Notes under the pieces: model-generated
What the model saw: the letters and a program-made list of their open reading frames with translations, nothing else
What the model was told of the DNA's origin: nothing
Databases searched by the model: none
In this document: positions 13,829 through 49,022 of the stretch, piece by piece
How positions within the stretch are numbered: position 1 is the stretch's first letter
Layout: every line of letters begins with the position of its first letter
Source: Rozella allomycis CSF55
Lineage: Eukaryota
Direction of reading: 5' to 3'
DNA length: 63,619 bases
NCBI GenBank assembly: GCA_000442015.1
Contig: KE561209.1
Coordinates: 655,503-719,121 of the forward strand
Position numbers and translations under genes: made by a program

Positions 13829-16303
13829 ATGGCGCAAGTCAGCAGAGCGAAAAATATTCTCGCGAAATACTACAGTGTTAATGATGGTGAGAAGGGTAAG
13901 AGCGGATTTATTGTGGGATAGTTGAGTCGCCGAAACGCGCAGAGGTTGAAATCGAGGATCCGAATCAGCCGCTCGGTATGGTGTGCTTTGGAGAGTTAAT
14001 TAGGTATGATTATATGTTGGGGTGTACAGATCATGCAGAGTTTAATGCTGATACGTATATTTCGTCAATGCTGGCGAATAAGGGGTTTGAAGAATTGACT
14101 ATTGAATTGGACGATCTGGACCAGCAGATCAAGCGATTCGAAGTTGATACAAAGACTCTTGTTTATGATAATTATACAAGATTCATTAAGGCTACTGATA
14201 CCATCAGTGACATGAAAAACGATGTTGAGCAAATGGAAAAATCAATGACTAGTTTGCTCACCCAAATGAATGAAATGTCACAGGATTCTAGTGCCATTCA
14301 CGAGAGATTTTCTGAAAGGCGTGTGAGAATAAATCAGTTATGTGAGGCCCAGAATATGGTGAAAAAGGTAATTCACTGGAGTAGAGGTTACAGATTCAAT
14401 ATATTTTGGAATTGCCGACATACTTGCAGAGAAATATATCGAAAAAGTCTAGCTGGAAAGCCCTAGTGCATAATTATTCGTGGATGATGGATAGTCTGCA
14501 AAATAAGGATCATATTGACAGTTTTGCAAAGATTAAACGGGAAGCAACTGAAATTATTGCGCCGATAAAGGATGAGGCGTATAAAAAGGTTACCCTGAAG
14601 AGTGCGGGAAAAGTAATAAATGTTAAATGGGTTTTTAGATCAAAATGGAAGATTTAATTGAAAGTTGCTCGATTCTGGTAGGAATTAAAGAGAACCCGCT
14701 GGACATCTCCCAATCTTTGATTAGCAGGTATGCATATCTTTATTGCAATTTTTAGCGCGGATACAATCTTAAAGAAGATTTCTTCATCGCTGCCTTTAAA
14801 GGGAACTTACAATGAGCAACTAGAGAATGTGAATTCTCAATATATTAAACCAATGACTCCTTTTTTGATTCATTTCCATTTCATTTTCATGTCAGAATTT
14901 GAAGTAAAAAGAAACAAAAAGAAGAATCCCAACACTGAAATTCAAGATTTACTACCCGGTCTACATAAAGTTCTATTATCCACGCAAGTAAATAACATAA
15001 ATTCGTATGATAGGAATATGATACTTTAAAGGCTAATCTTCTAGCTCAGGCAAATGAATGGCTAAACAATTTCTGCGAGTTGTTGAAAAATATTTTAAAA
15101 GAGGAAGTAATTTCTCTTTAAATTAATGTTTAAGAAAGATTGGCCTGTTTTGATTTCGTTTTTTCATGATGTGAATGAAATCGCAATGGTTTCTGACCAA
15201 AATCACTGTGTCGACATATTTTCTACAACAAAATCATTCATCCTATCATTCTTTATTAATAACATCCAAAAGAAATTCGTAAATCTCTCGTCGAGTTTAA
15301 TGGAATCCTTTGATAAAAATGACGAAATTGCTCCGTTAACAGATAACATTATGAATAGTTACACAATGATTATTAATGACATACAGCCAGTTTTAAGATC
15401 AGAATTCAGTTACATGAAATCATACTCTCATGATATTTTACTCACGTGTCAGACTCTCTTAAAACAATCTTTAACGGATTTCGTTAACTATCTAGGGAAT
15501 TTGAGTGTTTTGGATACAAAGCTTTTATTGAAACAAGTGTCGGTTCTATTTGAGCTTAATATTTCTATCCTTGATAAAATATTTGTTCATTTCTCTGAAA
15601 GTTTGTTCATTGGAAAAGGTGGTTTACGAAATTGGATGTCCCAAGTCGCCCCCATAAAATTAGAGGCAATACAATTAGCTCAAGTAAAATATTCGCATAT
15701 TTATGACAGAAATGTTTGGAACTCAGTGTTCGTCTCACAGAGACTTCCACTTTGGATATTCTGGAAACCTTTTTGGATAATCAACCCTGGCTTCAATATG
15801 AAATCCCGACTGGACACTCATCCGATATAGTGCGCTGTATTAATATTGTTCAAAACTTTAATTCCTTTTGTAACACATATTTGCCCAAGGCTCCGTCTAA
15901 AAAGAACTCTTCGTCTCAAAAAAGCGGATCAGATTCACGCAAAAGCAAGAATAACAGAAAGTCAACATTTGATGATCAACTATCAGCAAATATAGATAAG
16001 ATATTTTCTGAAAGAATAGTCATATTTGCACCAATTACAATAGACAACACATGTCCTGTCATGCAAGTGTGTAGGTCATTCCTGAAGGCATGGACTGAGT
16101 ATGTACGAATGAAAACACTTAATGCAAATGGATTTAATCAAATTCAAATTGATGCAGAGCAGTTTAGAATCGCTCTGTGGAAGATGGATAACGAAAATGA
16201 GACTTTAATGACTTTATTAGATGATGTCATTTCCAATGCATACAAAAGATCGATAAATCCAAGACCACTTTCACCAAATAGTCTCTCTAATTTTTCTAAA
16301 TAA
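13829..16303 (+). CDS. VPS51: GARP/EARP complex subunit Vps51/Ang2
   Basis: KNILAKYY N-terminus, FNADTYI, KTLVYDNYTRFIKATDTI, C-terminal IDKIFSERI and LKAWTEYVRMKTLNANGFNQIQID. Confidence 0.88.
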
Positions 16304-16702: not shown

Positions 16703-18769
16703 TTATTCTACTTTTTTCAATTCTTTTAATTGGCCAATGAACTTCTTTGGGGTGAGGACGTCTGTTGTGACGATATATATTTCTCTTTTCAATGAAGATG
16801 CACATTCATAAATAGTTCTTAATTCTGCGTATGTAGCGCCTCCTGCTATGAATAAAATGATCCGACCAGTCGATGATGTTTTATCCTTGTTATTTGCAAT
16901 TAAATGGACTTACCTTTGAATCTTTATTCTTAGTCTGCCATGTAGGTTTTGCGTTTCTTAGTGAAGTAATCTTTTTGGATCCCGAATTGTCGGGGTTATC
17001 TTCCGCGGCATCGCTCTCACGCATATAGGGATAATCCGAAGGCGTTAGCTGGTTTGCTATATAATCCTAGGTTATTAAAAATATTTTGTTACCTCAATGA
17101 GATATTTTATATTGGGGATGTATCTTGACAGTTCATATGGAACGTCATCGTCCCTCTTCTTTCTTTTCTTTTCCTTCTTTGAAACCTTCTTTTTCCCACT
17201 AGACTTTGAAAGTTTTATTCCCAATAAAGCTAAATTGGTAATGGCATTTGCATCATCGAATGGAATCTTGGCAATGTCTAACAATTTCTTCCTATCATTG
17301 TCATTGACCCCTTCTCTTGAGATTATGAACAGAATTAACAAGCGTATTTTATCAACAATTCTATAAATGAAAATTAATCGCCTTACGAAACATCTCTATC
17401 TGCTAACAATGGCGCCAAGTCAGCCACTGGGTTTTTCACTTCTGAGCCATCTGCGGTAAGTCCTGTAGCCATATCCTACATAAAAATAATAAACTCGTTT
17501 ATACTTGTTCAATGGAGGCAATTTTGTTCAGCTTTTTTCTTTCAAACTCTGCCATGCATTCTTGTGCCATTGTCATGTGTAAAGAAAACTTTCCTTTCAA
17601 CTCTTGAAACTGTGGAAGAGCATTTATCGTGTCTCTCATTTCTTTCAAAGTATTGGCACCCGTAGCAGCTGATCTTTGAGATGTTGAAATGGCTGCCTTA
17701 TTTTCAGACACGAATTTGTTAAAGTTATTCAAAAGATTGTTAATTGTTTCAGCGATATGGGTGTGCCTCAAACCTTCCCAAATATTATCAGTATCATCCA
17801 GTATAGTCTCTTTTTCATCAGCGCCTTGAGAGGAACTATAACGGTATCTCTTAAAAATATCAAGGAATCTTACGAATATTTTCTTCCATCAACTAACTCC
17901 AAAAGATCATTGGCCATTGCTTGATAGGTAAATTCATGAAGTATTGGACTAAACACATCAAACGAACGATCTATAACAAACATGACTGCCCGTGGTCGAT
18001 CAAGAGGTTCCATATTAGCCATTCTTGAATATCTATCTAATTTATCTTGGATAGTAAGAGCAAGTCGCTGGGTTAATTTATCAGGTGCTGTGGAATTCGC
18101 AGCATATCGAATGATTGGAATTTCACCCATTGTCGCGCAAACAGACANTTCAGAATTAATATTACTTTTTCCGCGATGAAATTTATTTCTTCTTGAAATT
18201 CATGGGAATCCGGAGAATAAAAGTGATAAAATGATTCTGGCCGTTCAAAGGTAATTACTTTTGATTCAAAAGCTATGATTATGAAATTGCATTGCTACCT
18301 ATAAAATCAACAAAAAGCTCTGTAATATTTTTGATATATCCTTTGTATGGACTAGTTGCAATTTTCTTGAACAACCCGTCACTTAACGCTACCTTGTGAT
18401 ATTAATACACGGTTACCAGCAGTAAAAAAGATATGTCCTCCAGCATATATTTTCGCTTTCATATCATTCAACAATGCATCAACAGATTTGGCCATTGGAG
18501 TAAGGAAATATATAGCTTGATAAGCCGGATAAGGTTGTCTTCCTTTTGTTATATCTTCCACAACTTTTTATGTAAATACATGCCTCAGTACCCATGATAT
18601 TTTCATCCGTTATATCATACATTTTAACTGCTGCTGAAATGACCTTTACTGAAATTGGATCTGTGATCAATATTTTCCATCCATTCGAAACAGATCGTAG
18701 CATATCCACCAAAATTCCTTTAAAATTGATAGCAAAATCTTTACTTTTCCTTACTAAATCTGTCGCCAT
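16703..18769 (-). CDS. SEC1: Sec1/Munc18 SM protein
   Basis: WKILITD, EDITKGRQPYP..AIYFLTP, DRSFDVFSPILHEFTYQAMANDLL, YELSRYIP, IILFIAGGATYAELR. Confidence 0.92.
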
Positions 18770-24032: not shown

Positions 24033-25241
24033 TCAATGCCATTCTTCATCGGATGAAGACGATTCCTCTCCTCTTTTTCGTTTCACATTTCCCCTTGAAA
24101 TGTCAAACAATCTTAGACCATCCATTACAGCAGACTTCAAATCCCAAAATTCAATTTTTGGAGGCTCTAATGTCCATTTATCTTTCAGAGGAATTTCAAC
24201 TGCAATATCTTCCTTGAATCCTTTGGCATGTGGATTGTAACTCTTTTTTAATGAATTCACTGCCTGATTTTGATAATGGGTAACACCAACGAATTCAAGT
24301 TCTTGAAATGTAAATGTAGTTGTCAACAGGTTATCATGAAATAATAAATCCTTAGTATCGTGTTCAACTATATGTATTCTTGGAACGTAACGATAAAAGG
24401 ACTGAACTATTAAGTGATTGGATTGATCCTCACTGATTACTTGAGTAATTAATTCTTTTGAGAAATCGATATCAGTTATTTTCCCCTGGTCATTTGATAA
24501 CTTAGCTTTTGCAAATGAAAAGCCATTCTTCATTAAGTTTTCACCATATGTTGCCTGCTCTTCACTTTTATACATTTTGTAAAGTCCTATAGGTGAAAGC
24601 TCTTCTGATTTTTGTGAATAGTTCCAAGATCCGTTTCTAAATCTTAAGCGCCGTTTGGAAACAGGGACGACATCCATCATGATCGTATAATGTTTGATAG
24701 GATCTAAGTTTGAAATGTCTCCTTTAATTAAAGGGAAAAAACATCTTCCGTTCCTAGTCAGTATCATTTCATTACCCAAGTAATGAAACTTAGCCCAGAG
24801 ATCTTCCTGATCCAATCGTAACTGATACTTGTTTTCGTGGCGTATAAAGTCTTGATTTATTTGACTCAAAGCGTAAGCATCCTGTACAAAATGAGAAAAG
24901 GCTTTTGCTGCCTCTATTGTATCATGAGAAATCACATTTCCTTCGCTCACTGAGTCCTCTGTATGAATTGCTGGACAGAGCCAGTTATGCGGGTATGACT
25001 GCAATGTAGAAGGCGAGCCTTTTGAAGCATTGTATCTTTCAGAATGGGAATGTTGGAAAACATGCTGTCCCAGAGATTTAGGGCTCGAGAGAATGTAATC
25101 GCGATAAATATTACTTAAAGAGTGAGCCGCTTTGAATGTAGAGTACGCTTCATCTTCTATTCCCTTGCTAATGAGATCATCTGTGTCCGATGAAGATTCT
25201 TGAGATTTCGGTGATTTCTTTGGAGTGTTATTGTTACTCAT
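24033..25241 (-). CDS. T-box transcription factor
   Basis: LWAKFHYLGNEMILTRNGRCFFP, LDPIKHYTIMMD, FSFAKAKLSN, SFYRYVPRIHIV, FVGVTHYQN, NPHAKGFKE; intronless. Confidence 0.93.
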   Translation of the reverse strand: MSNNNTPKKSPKSQESSSDTDDLISKGIEDEAYSTFKAAHSLSNIYRDYILSSPKSLGQHVFQHSHSERYNASKGSPSTLQSYPHNWLCPAIHTEDSVSEGNVISHDTIEAAKAFSHFVQDAYALSQINQDFIRHENKYQLRLDQEDLWAKFHYLGNEMILTRNGRCFFPLIKGDISNLDPIKHYTIMMDVVPVSKRRLRFRNGSWNYSQKSEELSPIGLYKMYKSEEQATYGENLMKNGFSFAKAKLSNDQGKITDIDFSKELITQVISEDQSNHLIVQSFYRYVPRIHIVEHDTKDLLFHDNLLTTTFTFQELEFVGVTHYQNQAVNSLKKSYNPHAKGFKEDIAVEIPLKDKWTLEPPKIEFWDLKSAVMDGLRLFDISRGNVKRKRGEESSSSDEEWH

Positions 25242-25324
25242 AGCGCTAGTACACTTGCCGGTCAACGAAAATAAGCTTTCATGAATTTAGAAAATAATAA
25301 AGTTAATCGAATGTATGAAATTTA

Positions 25325-33266: not shown

Positions 33267-34229
33267 TCAGTGATCTCTTCCATGTTCTTTACCGTGATCT
33301 CTTCCATGATGATCTTGTCCATGGTCTCTTCCATGATGGTCTTTTCCATGGTCTTTTCCATGATCTCCTCCATGATGGTCTTTTCCGTGGTCTCTTCCAT
33401 GATGGTCTTTTCCATGATCTCTTCCATGATGGTCTTTTCCATGGTCTCTTCCATGATGGTCTTTTCCATGATCTCTTCCATGATGGTCTTTTCCATGGTC
33501 TCTTCCATGATGGTCTTTTCCATGGTCTTTTCCATGATCTCTTCCATGATGGTCTTTTCCATGGTCTCTTCCATGATGGTCTTTTCCATGGTCTTTTCCA
33601 TGATCTCTTCCATGATGGTCTTTTCCATGGTCTCTTCCATGATGGTCTTTTCCATGGTCTTTTCCATGATCTCTTCCATGATGGTCTTTTCCATGGTCTC
33701 TTCCATGATGGTCTTTTCCATGGTCTTTTCCATGATCTCTTCCATGATGGTCTTTTCCATGGTCTCTTCCATGATGGTCTTTTCCATGGTCTTTTCCATG
33801 ATCTCTTCCATGATGGTCTTTTCCATGGTCTCTTCCATGATGGTCTTTTCCATGGTCTTTTCCATGATCTCTTCCATGATGGTCTTTTCCATGGTCTCTT
33901 CCATGATGGCCTTTTCCATGGTCTTTTCCATGATCTCTTCCATGATGGTCTTTTCCATGGTCTCTTCCATGATGGCCTTTTCCGTGGTCTTTTCCATGAT
34001 CTCTTCCATGATGGTCTTTTCCATGGTCTCTTCCATGATGGCCTTTTCCGTGGTCTTTTCCATGATCTCTTCCATGATGGTCTTTTCCGTGGTCTTTTCC
34101 ATGGTCTTTTATTTCCATTTTCGTTTCGGTAACTATTTCAGTTGCTTTCTTCTTTCCTTCGGCCTCCAAAGTCAAGGGTGCAGCAAAGATTAGATGGATT
34201 GCAAGTGATAGGAAGAAGAATGACTTCAT
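33267..34229 (-). CDS. secreted histidine-rich tandem-repeat protein
   Basis: Signal peptide MKSFFFLSLAIHLIFA followed by about 280 aa of GKDH/GKDHH/GRDH units; only this frame has a unique, signal-peptide-like N-terminus. Confidence 0.8.
   Translation of the reverse strand: MKSFFFLSLAIHLIFAAPLTLEAEGKKKATEIVTETKMEIKDHGKDHGKDHHGRDHGKDHGKGHHGRDHGKDHHGRDHGKDHGKGHHGRDHGKDHHGRDHGKDHGKGHHGRDHGKDHHGRDHGKDHGKDHHGRDHGKDHHGRDHGKDHGKDHHGRDHGKDHHGRDHGKDHGKDHHGRDHGKDHHGRDHGKDHGKDHHGRDHGKDHHGRDHGKDHGKDHHGRDHGKDHHGRDHGKDHGKDHHGRDHGKDHHGRDHGKDHHGRDHGKDHHGRDHGKDHHGRDHGKDHHGGDHGKDHGKDHHGRDHGQDHHGRDHGKEHGRDH
33275..34108. repeat. coding minisatellite of 12/15-nt units forming a 66-nt higher-order repeat
   Basis: Repeated (ga)tggtcttttcca / tgatctcttcca / tggtctcttcca units. 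Confidence 0.95.
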
Positions 34230-34382
34230 ATTGGTATTGGCAAATGCAAAATATCGATTATTATTGTAGTTGTTTGACAGGATTTTAGTTAACTCTTAGA
34301 CTCTACAATGACATAGGTTCTGGAAACATGATTATTTAATGCAGAGCTTGAGGAAAAGGTGACATTTGCGAAATTTACGAAA

Positions 34383-35002
34383 ATGTACTCAACGACACAG
34401 CAAAGATTGTCGCAGGCATTTTCATTTGCGTCAACTGTTCTATTCTTTCTCCTGCCTTTTATAGCTATAACTGGGCTTATTTTACCTAGGGAAGCCCATG
34501 TTGATATGAATTTGAAAGATATATATTTGTAATTTTTAACAAATAACCAAGATAGCAATCGAACAATTAACAGAGTCACTGGAAACAAAAAAGGCGTCAT
34601 ATCACTTGATTTAAATGCTGGTACCTCTGCACCAATCTCTATTATAGATTTTAGCAAAGTTTTTCATTGGAACACCAAAATGATTTATGCCTACTTGGTA
34701 CTAGAATATAAAGATAAAAATTACGTAATGATTATTATTTATTCTGTTACCAGGAACGGAATGAAATTATTTTCTGGGACAAAATAATTTGGAGGACTGA
34801 CGAAAAGGTTATCGATCAAAAAGTGAAAAATGTTTTTGACATTTCTTCATACAAAAATTCTAAATTATTGTAAATTCACTTCTAAATTAAAATAAGCGGT
34901 GTTAACGCTACTGTATCATTTAGGTACAATACGATCCCATGGGTAGGTCTTTTATTTGATGAAGAAATACAAAGAATACCAGTCACTTTTCCGAATAAAT
35001 AA
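34383..35002 (+). CDS. SPC3: signal peptidase complex subunit Spc3/SPCS3
   Basis: MYSTTQQRLSQAFSF, LDLNADFSKVFHWNTKMIYAYLVLEY, NEIIFWDKII, YNTIPWVG. Confidence 0.88.
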
Positions 35003-35073
35003 TTTTTATGTGTCAATTAACGGATTCCAAATGTCAATGGCGTTAATCTAATCTTTCTTAAATTTCCATTCAG

Positions 35074-35431
35074 ATGCCTTTAACACTAAACATTGATGAC
35101 CTGCAAAAATTGACTAGAAAATATATCCTTTTTGTATGATTTATAAGCACTGTGTTTCGACTGTAACTTTTTACATTGGTTAGCAGGGTTTGCATTTCTC
35201 CCATTTCTTTGGGTACTGAACTGTTTGGTTTATTTTCACACTGGGATGAAAAAAGAAATTTATCCACGTAATTGCATTCATATTTAAGTCTTAGACTTCA
35301 TACGTTCCTTAATTGGATCGATCTTTTGGGCGGCAACAATCATAACTTGGTTTATAGTGTACTATATATTTAGGAATAAATGGGACAATTGGGGAGACCG
35401 GATAAGTTTAAATATACCGAAAGGATATTGA
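35074..35431 (+). CDS. PSENEN: gamma-secretase subunit PEN-2 (exons 35074-35122, 35175-35267, 35295-35431; not in ORF track)
   Basis: Spliced product MPLTLNIDDLQKLTRKYWLAGFAFLPFLWVLNCLVYFHTGMKKEIYPHFIRSLIGSIFWAATIITWFIVYYIFRNKWDNWGDRISLNIPKGY matches PEN-2 hallmarks RKYxLxGFAFLPFLW, RSxxG, W..GDxxS..IPxG. A short upstream exon at 35031 is possible. Confidence 0.92.
35123..35174 (+). other. AT-AC (U12/minor-type) intron in PEN-2
   Basis: 5' ATATCCTTT, branch-like ACTGTAAC, 3' AC; removal gives RKYWLAGFAFL, and no nearby GT-AG pair restores the frame. Confidence 0.75.
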
Positions 35432-35678
35432 AAATAAATTATATTGATGCAAGATCACTCGCTGCGTAATTTGGCGTTGGTAAATTTCTTTCATTACAAA
35501 AGAATTATTCACCAATTTCTGTTTTTTGACTTTTTAAACGCAACCAGTGCATTTATTTAACCTAGCTTCAACCTGATGCCATTTTTATGATTCATTTCTC
35601 CGCGTTCACCTATTTACTTTTTAATATTAGTGAAAAACAGCTGTCCTCACAAACTGACCAGGGTTGTTTCGAAAAGCG

Positions 35679-36740
35679 ATGGATGCCATTTATCTTACCT
35701 ACACTGCCTTAATTATACTGGCTGTTATACCGATTTACGTTGGCTCACATTATGCAGCAGATTCATCATCTAAACCTGAGGTAGCAAATATATGTCCTTA
35801 TTTATCTAGTCTGAAACTGTTTCTGCTAACGACGCTTACCTTTTTCCTGTGTATGGTTCAGGAGTTCTTTTTGGTCTCTATTTGCTGGTTAACTATCTCT
35901 CCAAAGAATATTTGAATTACTTGCTTGCAGCCTACTTTGGAATCTTTGGGGCAATGGGAATGGCGAAAATTGTCGATGTCATTTTACGTGCGTTTATACC
36001 TCCCGCAATGTTAAATGAACCATATGTGGCAAAGATCAGTCACAAAGAGAAAAGTAAATTTTACCCTATCATAATAACGAATAGCATTATTTCATCTTGA
36101 AGTGGATTGGTTAAATGCATTTTCATTTGTATTAGCTGTATCTTTTACTGGAGTATATCTTTGGTGCAAAAATTGGATTATGAGCAATGTCTTTGGTGAA
36201 GCATTTTCCATTCAGGCAATTTCATTGTTAGAACTTGATTCTTTTGGAACTGGTATGATTCTTTTATCAGGTCTATTCCTGTACGATATTTTTTGGGTAT
36301 TCGGGACTGACGTTATGGTATTGAATCTTGTTGTTGTCAAATAGGTCACCGTTGCAAAGTCTTTTGATATTCCAATCAAGCTCTTGTTTCCTCGAGATGT
36401 TTTTGCTCCCTCTTACAAGTTTGCTTTGCTCGGTCTTGGAGATATTGTCATTCCTGGAATATACGTCGCGATGTGCTTGAAATTTGATCGTCATTTGACC
36501 AAAACCAACGAGAATCACGGAAAGCCATACTTTAAGGCATGCTTATTGGCTTACATTTTAGGATTGTCCACCACAATGGCTGTCATGCATATTTTCAACG
36601 CCGCCCAACCTGCACTGTTGTATCTCAGTCCAGCTTGTATCCTCTCTTCGGTTCTCATGGCTTTGTATCGTGGCGAATTTTCTGAACTTCTTGCTTTTAC
36701 AACTATCGAAGACGTTAAAGACAAGAAGAAAAGTGAATAA
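35679..36740 (+). CDS. SPP: signal peptide peptidase (GxGD intramembrane aspartyl protease, HM13/SPP)
   Basis: GLFLYDIFWVFGTDVM, LGLGDIVIPG, QPALLYL, C-terminal KKSE ER-retrieval motif. Confidence 0.95.
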
Positions 36741-41156: not shown

Positions 41157-41313
41157 GTCAAATCAGTAACCAAAATAGAGATCCTTCAGCTCCAACTTTC
41201 TCAAATAAAATTACAAAATACTAAACTCTTTCAAAAACAGCTAGCCAATTTATCAAACTATTTAAACTTTCCATTTTAATTTCTAACATTTCGAAATTTC
41301 GTAAACTCAAAAA

Positions 41314-44300
41314 ATGGAAAATGACGATGACCAAGTAATATCGCAGTTGTATTCCGCTGCGAGTGTGCTGTCTAGTGACAATAAATTTGAGTTTGATTTT
41401 GCAGTGAATAGTAATTTTGTGCGGGATGTGACGACTGAAGAGGAAGAGTTTACGGTGGAAGTGTTTTCGCATCCGATTGAAGAGGAGTTGGAAGGGAATG
41501 TTGGGGATGGGAAACATGTTGGAGATGGTTTTGATAGAGATAATGGAGTGGGTCGTGATGTTGAAGGTGCTGAAGAGGTTGTGAGAGTTGATGATAATGA
41601 AGAAGGTAATAATGAGGGAGATAATGAAATCGATATGACAAAAGAAGATGGAAATGGAGAAGAGAATGCAGAAAATATTGCCACAGAAATTGATAATGTT
41701 GCGACCGTCGATGAAACCACTGCTGATAAAGAAGATGAAAAGATTAATGAAAACAACGAAAGTGAAGAAGAAGATTTTGGATTCAAGTATTTTGAAATGA
41801 ATGAGATTGAAGCAACGCATGAAAATTTGATGCACGATCAATTTGAGGAATACAATAAATTTTTGATTGACAGTGAAATTGGCCTTGTTGAAAATGTGGA
41901 ACCAAAAGATGAAAGTGAATCTAAGGATGTGGAGGATGAGGATGAGTTTCTTGCAGCTACACAGTTGCCTGATGATTTTGAGACTGCGAATGTTGAGATT
42001 CCGGTTGTTGAGAGTTTTGAAGTTGAGGGGACTGAGAGGGAACAGTTGACTGAGGGGGTGGATGAAGTTACTGAAGAAGATGATAAAAGAGAAGAAGGGA
42101 ATGAGCAAGCAGAAATTGAGCCGATAGAAAGTAATGAAGTAGTTGAATTTGAAGATGCAAAAGATAATGCAGTTATGGAAGATTTTGAGATATTGGGTGA
42201 GTTTGAAGGCGAGAAACAAGTTGAAACAATTGAAGAAAGTGTAGACAGAGACTCTAGTGAAGTAGAATATGTTGAATCAGAACATAATAAAGTGGAACAC
42301 AATGTAGAACATGAAGAAGTTGAACATGGCAGGATTGAACATGATGTAGTAGAAAATGATGAAGTGTGTGGAGAAAGAGTTGATGAAAATGAAGAGAACA
42401 ACAACTTGAATGAAAATGAAATGGTTGCTGATCAAGTGGATGTTTCAATGGAAAAGAGAGAAGAAACAAATTATGAGACTAGAACAGAAGATGGCATGGA
42501 TGGAATGGATATTGTTGAAGATTTTGAAAGGGATGTGATGTTTGCTGAATCACAGATCATTGGAAGATCAGAAGAAGTAATGGTAGAAGAAGATGAAGAA
42601 TCAAAGGAAGAAAATGAGAGTATTGAAGAGAATAATCAGCAAATTGAAAGCTTAAACATGGAATCTGAAGTCAATAAGAAAATTGATACTATTGAAGAAA
42701 GTCATCACCATGATAACACGGAAACATTTACTGGTGGAATTCTTAACGTTGATAATAAAATGGAAGCAGTTACTGGTGAACACCCCATTGACAAAGTTGA
42801 AGTGACTCACAAAGTTGACACTGAAATGCATCATAATGTTGATGTGGAAGCAGTAGTACTTCACAGCTCTGAGAATGTTGAAATGAGTGAAACACATCAA
42901 TTTGAGACTGAATTGGACTCTTTGGATGAATCTTTAGATTTGAGGGGGGTTGAAAAGGAAAAGGAAATAGAAAAGTTAAAGTTTCATTTTAAGAGTTTGA
43001 TTGAAACATTTAAAGTGAATTTTGAAGCGTCGAATCAAGCGAAAAAGTATTTTGAAAAAGAGAATGAAACGATTGAGAATAATTTTAATTTGATTAAAGA
43101 AAGAAAGATGGAGATTAGTAATTTTACGAATGAAAATATTCAAATAATGAATTGTATTTCATTTGAAGGTATTTTAGAAAATTTAAGAAATATGAATGAA
43201 AAGAATTTAATTCAAGAAAAAGAAAAAAAGAAGATTTTAGATTTGTTTGAATTTTCATTTAATAATTTTGTGAATTTAAAACAGAATTATCATTTGTTGT
43301 ATGAAATGTTGTTCAAGTGGGATAATTCAATTAAAGAAACAATTGATTTTATTTATTCAGATTTTTTAGATAAATTAGAAAAAGTATTTTTAAAATTGAG
43401 AAGAGAAAATAAAATATTTTTAGAATTGTTTAAAAGATTAGAAAATAAAATTTTTGAATTGGAAAAATTTTCAAGTAAAAAAAGATCAATCTAATCTAAT
43501 CTAGGTTCAAGGGTTGAGAAAAAAGAGAAAAATTTTATCAATGAAATTATTAAAGAAATTAAAGATAAAGAAATTGAAATGGAGAAAATATCAAATCAAT
43601 CAAAAGATTTTAAAGTTCAAGTTTTAAATAAATTTGATTTGTTTAAAAATGATTTGATTATAATGAAGAAGCAAGTTGGAATGTTTAGAGAGATTTGGAT
43701 TGAATCTTTAAGAGAAGTTTTAGAAAATTACAAGAATGATTCAAAAGAAAATAAAATTAATAAAGAAAAAATTATTGAATTGGAATCTATTTTAAAATGT
43801 TTAACAAATCATTCAAATCATTTAGAATTAGAATTAAACAAAGAAAAATCAGAAAGAAATGAAATTGAAAATAATCTCAAAACTAAATATGAATCTGAAA
43901 TTGAAAATTATAAAAAGAGATTTGAATCTGAAATGCAAAATGAAATTCAATCTTTACAAAATGAAATTCAATCTTTGCAAAATGAAAATGAATCTTTAAA
44001 GGAGAAAATTCAATCTGAAAATTTAAATGAAATTCAAAATGAAATTGACTCTTTAAAGAATAACATTGAATTGTTAGCAAATGAAAAAGAAACTTTAATC
44101 AATCAAAATATGGAACTAAAAGAGACTGTTCAAGTAACAAAGTTAGAATTGAAGAATAATAATGAATCACTAAACAATGAAAACACCTTGTTAAAGGAAA
44201 CAATTGAAGCATTAAAGAGTGAAAACGAAATGCTAAAAAAGGAAAATATAACATTGAATGAAAATGTTGAAGCTTTAAAGAATGAGAATATTGGATTGAA

Positions 44301-45630
44301 TAATTCTGTTGAAGAATTAAAGAATGAAACAAATAAATCAAATGAAACAGTTGAATATTTAAAGAGTGAAAAATCTAAATTGAATGAAACAGTTGAATCA
44401 CTTCAAAGCAACATTGAATTATTAAATAATGAAAATGAATCTTTAAATGAAAAATATCAAAATATTTTAACAGAAAATAATTCAACAAAAGAGAATGTTA
44501 ACAATCTATTAATAGAAATTGAATCTTTAAAAGAAAATTCTCAATCTAATGATAAAATCATTCAATTAGAAAATGATCTAAAAAGATCTATTGATGAAAA
44601 AAATAATCTTGAAAATATTTTAAATAATTTAAAATCTGAAAATTCAAACAAATTAAATGAATTAGAATTATCTCATTCCACTAAAATTTCTTCTTTAAAT
44701 CAAGAATTAATTTCTAAAATTTCAGAAATAGATTCATTAAAATCTGAAATTGAAAAATTAAAAAACTTAAATTCATCTCTTGAAAAAGATTTGAAATCTG
44801 CAAAAGATTCTTTAAAAGATTTTGAAATTGAAAATATTAAAAATGATGACTTTGATTTTGATACTTCAATCTCTGTCTTAACCCCTTCAATCCAACACAA
44901 GAGAAAATTAGTAAATGATTCTGGAATCTTAAAACCAATCGAAAATTCTTCAATGTCGGCCAAGAAAATTAGAAAAGGTTTTTATTCCATTCTTTATTTA
45001 CTTAGACGCTTCAAGAGTTGCTCATCCTGTCATCATGCTCAGTGGGTTCCAAGAAAAACATCCAATCTACAATCTAGAACTAAGAGAACGTTTAATTGAA
45101 ATCTTAAAGTAATTTCTTTTATTCCCTCTCAACAGTCGCTTAAATATTGAATTCTTGCTAACCTCCAATTTTGAAGACAAGATCACTCATCTAGTAGCTT
45201 GGTCTGACAACAAAACCTTGAAATACTACGCTTCATGCATAACCTTCAAGTACATCTACACTCCATTTAATATTTTAGATGGGTCATGCACCACGAATGG
45301 CTTCTAGAATCTGGTCGACGAGGCTACCTCATAGATGAAGAATCATTCGGTAAACAATTATCAACAAACCCCGTCCTGAAAAAGAAAATTTACAGAACTT
45401 CTAAATATTTAAAAGAAATGGAAAGAAAAACTGTTAGAAAAGATTATGGTGATATTCTCTTGATTCAGGTATTTATTTGTTGTTTTTGGTAATAGTTGGG
45501 AAATGGCGTTTATACGGATGACAGGCAAGAAGCTGATATTGTTTTGAAGGCTGACAAGGAAGCATTCACTTCGTCTATTCCGTCGTTCACTTGGAGTCAA
45601 TTGCTGAATCTCATTGAAAGGGGTCAATAA
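41314..45630 (+). CDS. large acidic/coiled-coil protein with C-terminal BRCT-like domain
   Basis: About 500 aa D/E-rich, about 650 aa coiled coil, then VIMLSGF...ITHLVA...KTLKYY...WVMHHEWLLES. Confidence 0.7.
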
Positions 45631-48452: not shown

Positions 48453-49022
48453 CTAATTTCGACTTCTAAATATCCTCCTTACAATCATGGATACGATCAA
48501 GGCAAATACAGTCCCAAAAATTGCCCCAACAAACACTTGTCCAAATGTGTGATATCCGATGTAAGTTCTAAAAAAATATAATCAAATACACAAACCTTGA
48601 CCATCCCACTAAGGATACCACTGTCAAATTCAAAAAGATCCAGAGAATTCGATTAAATCCAAACATTTTTCTATTGAAATTACGTGATATACGTACAAAT
48701 TAAGAAACATGAACATTAGAAATGCTGTTGTTTGTGCATGATTTGAAGGCATTCCTGACGAATGAGAACGCACTTGCTCATTTGGTCTTTCATGGTTTAA
48801 AAGACGCTTGGCAACATCGTTAATAATCTCATTCACAATTATTCCGATACCCCAGTATATGCACCGTATAAACTTCTTTAGATTTCCATACTCCAAGTGT
48901 GTAAAGGAGTAAAATACAAAACCAGTCGGAGCGAGAATGGGAAAATATGATACAAATGCTGCTATTAATGATAGGAAATCAGTAGGATCGTATTCTGTAT
49001 AGAACAGCCCAACCGGCTTCAT
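48453..49022 (-). CDS. DOLPP1: dolichyl pyrophosphate phosphatase (PAP2 family, CAX4/DOLPP1)
   Basis: NEIINDVAKRLLNHERP, GMPSNHAQ, SRTYIGYHTFGQVFVG. Confidence 0.85.

Follow-up and report, generated by a model that had tools for sequence, protein, structure and literature searches.

A probable U12-type AT-AC intron in a three-exon PEN-2 gene of Rozella allomycis

We analyzed a stretch of 63,619 nucleotides of Rozella allomycis CSF55 (contig KE561209.1), called here the window. At positions 35074-35431 of the plus strand, we show that it holds an intact three-exon gene predicted to encode PEN-2, the small subunit of gamma-secretase. The gene and the elements of its first intron are arranged as follows.

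35074..35122, plus strand: exon 1, an ATG and 15 codons followed by T, the first base of a split Tyr codon; translation MPLTLNIDDLQKLTRK
35123..35174, plus strand: intron 1, AT-AC, phase 1, with a length of 52 nt in the window and one T more (53 nt) in the contigs of three DNA runs
35123..35131, plus strand: donor of intron 1, ATATCCTTT, matching the U12 consensus /RTATCCTTT at 9 of 9 positions
35140..35142, plus strand: T-run inside intron 1, with four T's in the contigs of the three DNA runs X1, X2 and X5
35160..35168, plus strand: branch-like motif ACTGTAACT, matching UCCUUAACU at 6 of 9 positions, with two A's 8-9 nt before the last base of the intron
35175..35267, plus strand: exon 2, AT followed by WLAGFAFLPFLWVLNCLVYFHTGMKKEIYP and C; matches Pfam PF10251 and human PEN-2
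35268..35294, plus strand: intron 2, ordinary, 27 nt, GTAATT...TTAG, phase 1; read unspliced, it leads into a stop codon
35295..35431, plus strand: exon 3, translation FIRSLIGSIFWAATIITWFIVYYIFRNKWDNWGDRISLNIPKGY followed by a TGA stop; matches Pfam PF10251

Exon 2 (E 2.2e-6, 28.4 bits, profile positions 13-41) and exon 3 (E 2.9e-10, 40.9 bits, profile positions 52-93 of 93) both exceed the 25-bit cut-off of the PEN-2 family PF10251. After the AT of the split codon, exon 2 begins with WLAGFAFLPFLW..., and it aligns to residues 18-42 of human PEN-2 from the gamma-secretase structures of the PDB (5a63_D, E 9.5e-4). Exon 1 with its read-through (25 aa) hit no Pfam family, and the 30-aa exon 2, taken as query of an exhaustive HMMER search, returned no match at E up to 0.001. 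Compared with seven other PEN-2 sequences, the loop between the two helices lacks about 8 residues. For intron 2, the use of an alternative acceptor, the AG at 35287-88, would yield a 21-nt intron and would also keep the frame.

The reading frame of exon 1 ends at a TGA (35137-39), and the frame of exon 2 offers no Met ahead of the first transmembrane segment; an intron is therefore required between the two exons. The junction was searched without the use of any splice motif. The last base of exon 1 was varied from 35095 to 35140 and the first base of exon 2 from 35141 to 35199, giving 2,714 junctions, and the products were scored with a profile built from seven uninterrupted full-length PEN-2 ORFs of metagenomes (101-104 aa). 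In frame and free of stops were 788 of these junctions, which gave 474 distinct products with a minimum of 47.0 bits. The eight best products (70.3-73.2 bits, arising from 15 junctions) all result from the excision of exactly 52 nt, with starts between 35121 and 35135, while all the following products remained at or below 68.1 bits. Among the 15 top-scoring junctions, 35123-35174 is the sole one with known splice ends (AT-AC); the excised sequence is ATATCCTTTTTGTATGATTTATAAGCACTGTGTTTCGACTGTAACTTTTTAC, and its product scored 72.9 bits, 0.3 under the best. The cut of intron 1 can slide by +1 or +2 with the mRNA unchanged, the ends being then read as AT-AC, TA-CA or AT-AT. None of the 2,714 junctions tried was a GT-AG or a GC-AG junction in frame. 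GTATGA at 35134 is the sole GT in the reading of exon 1, and none of the AGs that follow it gave a product that was in frame and free of stops, in agreement with the initial annotation, which had considered this adjacent donor unworkable. That annotation had also predicted that splicing at T|AT yields RKYWLAGFAFL, and the same product was obtained from the translations of exons 1 and 2. Aligned with the seven metagenome homologues, the spliced protein is free of gaps at the junction (D-D-x-x-K-L-T-R-K-Y versus [DE]-[DE]-K-L-x-L-C-R-K-Y). These data show that a 52-nt excision is needed between the predicted exons 1 and 2, and we infer from them that splicing takes place at the 35122/35175 junction.

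Contigs of three DNA runs cover the site (X1, 34105-35458; X2, 34105-35460; X5, 34576-36599). For X1 and X2, where the list of differences is complete, the single gap relative to the window is one T inside the intron; exon 1, the donor, the branch region and the 3′ end are all free of differences, and no substitution is found within the intron. This additional T, located after 35139, is present at full depth in all three runs and brings the intron to 53 nt. The length of 52 nt given in the initial annotation holds for the sequence of the window and is one nucleotide short for the contigs. Because the extra T lies within every candidate intron, the frame is unchanged and a GT-AG intron is not rescued. 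The differences listed for X5 comprise two changes in the middle of the intron (35149 A>G and 35151 T>A) and two upstream, with none in the exons. A possible assembly error of 1-2 nt in the T-run at 35129-35133 had been singled out for checking, and the contigs of X1, X2 and X5 carry no indel there. No joint at either of the two PEN-2 introns was found in the three DNA runs. The contigs show that the DNA at the locus is correct.

It is unlikely that the junction is unused, as would be the case if the locus were a decaying or silent copy of PEN-2 or if exon 2 were joined to another upstream exon. Such a reading would fit the protein collection, which held no protein of at least 78 residues containing exon 3 (two candidates, none of which scored) and no protein of at least 82 residues containing exon 2 (query, the 46-aa ORF around exon 2; no candidate). 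However, all three exons are open and reach 72.9 bits as one product against the seven-sequence PEN-2 profile, and the changes listed for X5 spare the exons while four of them fall in the intron or upstream. Furthermore, if the AG at 35146-47 served as acceptor for the donor at 35123, the product would score only 61.3 bits, which is 11.6 lower.

The AT-AC termini are present at the junction required by the protein, and the donor ATATCCTTT agrees at every position with the U12 donor consensus as it is given in the Background of PMC2846911; this part of the initial annotation, a U12 5′ consensus at the start of the intron, is fully supported. The shorter motif RTATCCTT was seen 10 times in the window versus 5.63 times expected, and 7 of 100 shuffles reached 10, so that the count by itself is not significant. 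The placement of the donor at a start allowed by homology would be improbable by chance: about 4.4e-5 per position and strand, multiplied by 15 starts, gives less than 1e-3, a value computed before also demanding an AC end. The branch region is less telling. When 17,878 segments of 52 nt were drawn at random from the window, 34% of them contained a match of 6/9 or better, and the motif near the terminal AC, to which the initial annotation had pointed, is thus at the level of chance. Consequently, the assignment to a class rests on the donor and the termini. We conclude from these elements that intron 1 very probably belongs to a known kind, the U12-type AT-AC introns.

The window has nine further RTATCCTT sites, and none resembles the start of an intron. 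Intron 1 is therefore a single case, which counts against the explanation that we prefer below. The site at 18336 on the plus strand (ATATCCTTTGTATGG...CACTTAACGCTAC) was considered as a second AT-AC intron and rejected, as it is antisense to a Sec1-family gene of the minus strand. The site at 35421 on the minus strand is antisense to exon 3 of PEN-2, and that at 48611 on the minus strand is exonic in a PAP2 gene, the real intron of which is a 28-nt GTTTGT...TTTAG. Each of the further sites falls within an ORF of 69 to 241 aa, either on its own strand or on the other one. A relaxed scan of the window for more U12-like introns gave nothing usable.

The ordinary introns of the window are much shorter than intron 1. 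Candidate GT...AG introns bridging two ORFs numbered 18, 22, 7 and 18 at lengths of 26, 27, 28 and 29 nt, respectively, versus 2-9 for each length from 16 to 25 and from 30 to 38 nt. This filter is noisy, since control dinucleotide pairs yielded similar totals, and the length peak alone was used as evidence. Within the 59 GTA...AG candidates of 24-31 nt, 51 fall at 26-29 nt; their consensus is GTAA at the 5′ end and [A/T]AG at the 3′ end, where AAG accounts for 42%, TAG for 42% and CAG for 7%. With its 52-53 nt, the AT-AC intron is about twice as long as this local peak, as had been noted for its neighbours in the initial annotation. With a G+C content of about 0.28-0.40 (around 35%) and ordinary introns of about 27 nt, the window is compatible with the values published for Rozella allomycis, namely 34% G+C (the low end of a range citing the genome paper), a genome of 11.8 Mb and introns of about 30 nt, as they appear in the parts of PMC5701793 and PMC6349667 consulted. 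The top named relatives of a PPPDE peptidase ORF of the window are early-diverging fungi (Dimargaris, Dispira, chytrids and Syncephalis), with 41-52% identity.

Minor introns are known from several such lineages. The portions of a 2023 survey at our disposal (PMC10639083) list them in the early-diverging fungi Rhizophagus (205), Basidiobolus (249), Spizellomyces and Neocallimastigomycetes, and report no convincing minor introns in Ascomycota or Basidiomycota. The statement of the initial annotation that the minor machinery was lost in most fungi is too strong, as several early-diverging lineages are reported to keep minor introns. Because the top protein relatives of the host are early-diverging fungi, a group with several lineages having minor introns, this distribution supports the U12-type reading. 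According to the same portions of the survey, from which introns under 30 bp were excluded, minor introns are biased away from phase 0, and intron 1, with its phase 1, agrees with this bias. The U12-type AT-AC introns described for Rhizopus oryzae, Rhizophagus irregularis, Basidiobolus meristosporus, Spizellomyces and Neocallimastigomycetes in the parts of PMC2846911 and PMC10639083 used here have the same /ATATCCTTT donor, an AC end and a non-zero phase. Intron 1 differs from them by its undistinguished branch site and by its host, in which normal introns have about 27 nt. In the same parts of PMC10639083, the minor introns of Blastocystis have a mean length just under 42 bp and a median of 39 bp, and 77% of them are AT-AC. 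They resemble intron 1 as very short AT-AC minor introns of a compact genome; however, they number hundreds, half of them in phase 0, whereas the window holds one in 64 kb, in phase 1 and longer (52-53 nt). Given the Blastocystis median, the view that intron 1 is unusually short for the minor class does not hold.

The explanation that we prefer, and that we regard as likely, is a U12-type phase-1 AT-AC intron in an intact PEN-2 gene, excised by a retained minor spliceosome. The sequence of the donor points to a dependence on U11, U12, U4atac and U6atac. According to this model, the donor ATATCCTTT would be recognised by U11 and then by U6atac, a branch adenosine near 35165-35166 would be used, and the minor spliceosome, kept beside the major one, would remove intron 1, while the major spliceosome would remove the ordinary 26-29-nt GTAA...[A/T]AG introns. 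Searches of the window with Rfam revealed no U11, U12, U4atac or U6atac, either at the gathering score or with the E-value limit relaxed to 10, a result that says little as it covers 64 kb. At the gathering score, Rfam detected one tRNA only in the window, which ARAGORN gives as tRNA-Val. A U6-like match at 16115-16218 on the plus strand (21.8 bits versus a gathering score of 44) lies inside a 198-aa ORF, and its core GATGCAGAGCAG departs from the consensus; it was considered spurious.

We think it quite improbable that intron 1 is a relic of the minor class, left after the loss of U11, U12, U4atac and U6atac and excised by the major spliceosome or an altered form of it. The failure to find a minor snRNA in the window would be consistent with such a relic, as would the branch motif at the level of chance and the presence of GTATGA 11 nt inside the intron. 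However, the donor is a perfect U12 consensus, and it has only positions 2-3 in common with the local GTAA donor, so that its pairing with U1 is expected to be poor. Moreover, a 9/9 donor would not be expected to persist in the absence of U11 and U6atac, and GTATGA yields no in-frame product. U2-dependent AT-AC introns carry ATAAGT-like donors, with a sequence of the major type after the AT; they share the AT-AC termini with intron 1, which differs from them by its full U12 donor. To our knowledge, a takeover by the major spliceosome was never documented for a ATATCCTTT-type donor. We consider it very unlikely that the minor spliceosome was lost and that the major spliceosome, in an organism where normal introns measure about 27 nt, nevertheless removes a ATATCCTTT...AC intron accurately.

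An assembly error concealing an ordinary GT-AG intron (GTATGA...AG) can practically be dismissed: the window is indeed one T short after 35139 as compared to all three read sets, but this T lies inside every candidate intron and leaves the exon frames untouched, the contigs are free of indels over the T-run at 35129-33 with all differences of X1 and X2 accounted for, and with the AG at 35185-86 as acceptor of GTATGA the combined exon length would be 278 nt, a number not divisible by 3.

We compared the PEN-2 genes of metagenomes at this position. A degenerate GFAFLPFLW pattern retrieved 45 metagenome loci, of which 33 were PEN-2-like and 12 were not PEN-2; the seven full-length ORFs of the profile used above came from among these 45. 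A phase-1 AG acceptor is found in the codon immediately before GFAFL in 22 of the 33 PEN-2-like loci; seven are uninterrupted through R-x-Y, and four are arranged otherwise. The 22 loci with the acceptor (L002, L007, L009 and 19 more) include many near-identical contigs, apparently mostly of animals, and in two of them the donor was directly seen to be GTAAGT. At the position of intron 1, an intron was found in none of the 33 PEN-2-like loci, which include no close relative of the host; hence they bring no evidence of conservation, and this was counted against the preferred explanation, although they speak neither for nor against an intron of ancient origin. The GT-AG intron of the metagenome genes is like intron 1 in its phase 1 and in its location in the same N-terminal segment before GFAFLPFLW, but it lies three codons (9 nt) further downstream. 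As the two introns are not at the same position, their homology is not established. The part of PMC2846911 that we used describes one conversion from U12 to U2 through a short shift of the splice position; whether a similar shift might connect intron 1 with the one located 9 nt from it is no more than a speculation.

Even one well-formed U12-type intron would indicate that a second spliceosome is still at work in the lineage, and would do so in a very compact genome. Rozella allomycis is a relative of the microsporidia, a group said to lack the minor spliceosome. If the preferred reading is true, the minor spliceosome would have outlasted strong genome reduction in a relative of that group. 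Only two outcomes would make the case more interesting: the absence of the minor snRNAs from the genome, or confirmation that the lineage, in which their retention is not yet known, is closely related to microsporidia. If GT-AG ends are imposed, annotation would overlook the PEN-2 gene or cut it short, and consequently surveys that discard very short introns or are based on GT-AG annotation could undercount minor introns here. The main text of PMC10639083 contains no occurrence of Rozella, Cryptomycota or microsporidia. Full-text literature searches in which U12 or minor-spliceosome terms were paired with Rozella, Cryptomycota or Rozellomycota gave nothing relevant among the matches listed, and a full-text search for PSENEN with 'minor intron' found nothing.

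Several other features of the window were observed. Directly downstream of PEN-2 lies a gene for a signal peptide peptidase (35684-36740, plus strand; Peptidase_A22B, E 3.6e-40 on the ORF 36345-36740), so that two proteins linked to presenilin-type intramembrane proteolysis are encoded by adjoining genes. In the intergenic region between PEN-2 and this peptidase gene (35464-35640), the DNA runs differ by small insertions (2-8 nt) and by substitutions, which suggests divergent alleles or strains. On the other side of PEN-2, positions 33271-34103 are occupied by a tandem array with a unit of 66 nt (12.6 copies, 91% matches), for which a period of 27 nt was scored as well; all six frames of the array are open, no Pfam match was obtained, and the DNA runs cover it several-fold more deeply. 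At 41305-45099 on the plus strand, a candidate intron of 30 nt, GTAAAA...CTAG (43475-43504), can connect two long ORFs of 729 and 534 aa; this region is rich in A+G, has repeats of 21 and 42 nt, and gave weak coiled-coil Pfam matches alone. The window also encodes an F-box/LRR gene, as identified by Pfam. Finally, a full T-box domain (E 1e-47) is encoded by an uninterrupted ORF of 417 aa on the minus strand (24033-25286), the top protein relatives of this genome being early-diverging fungi.
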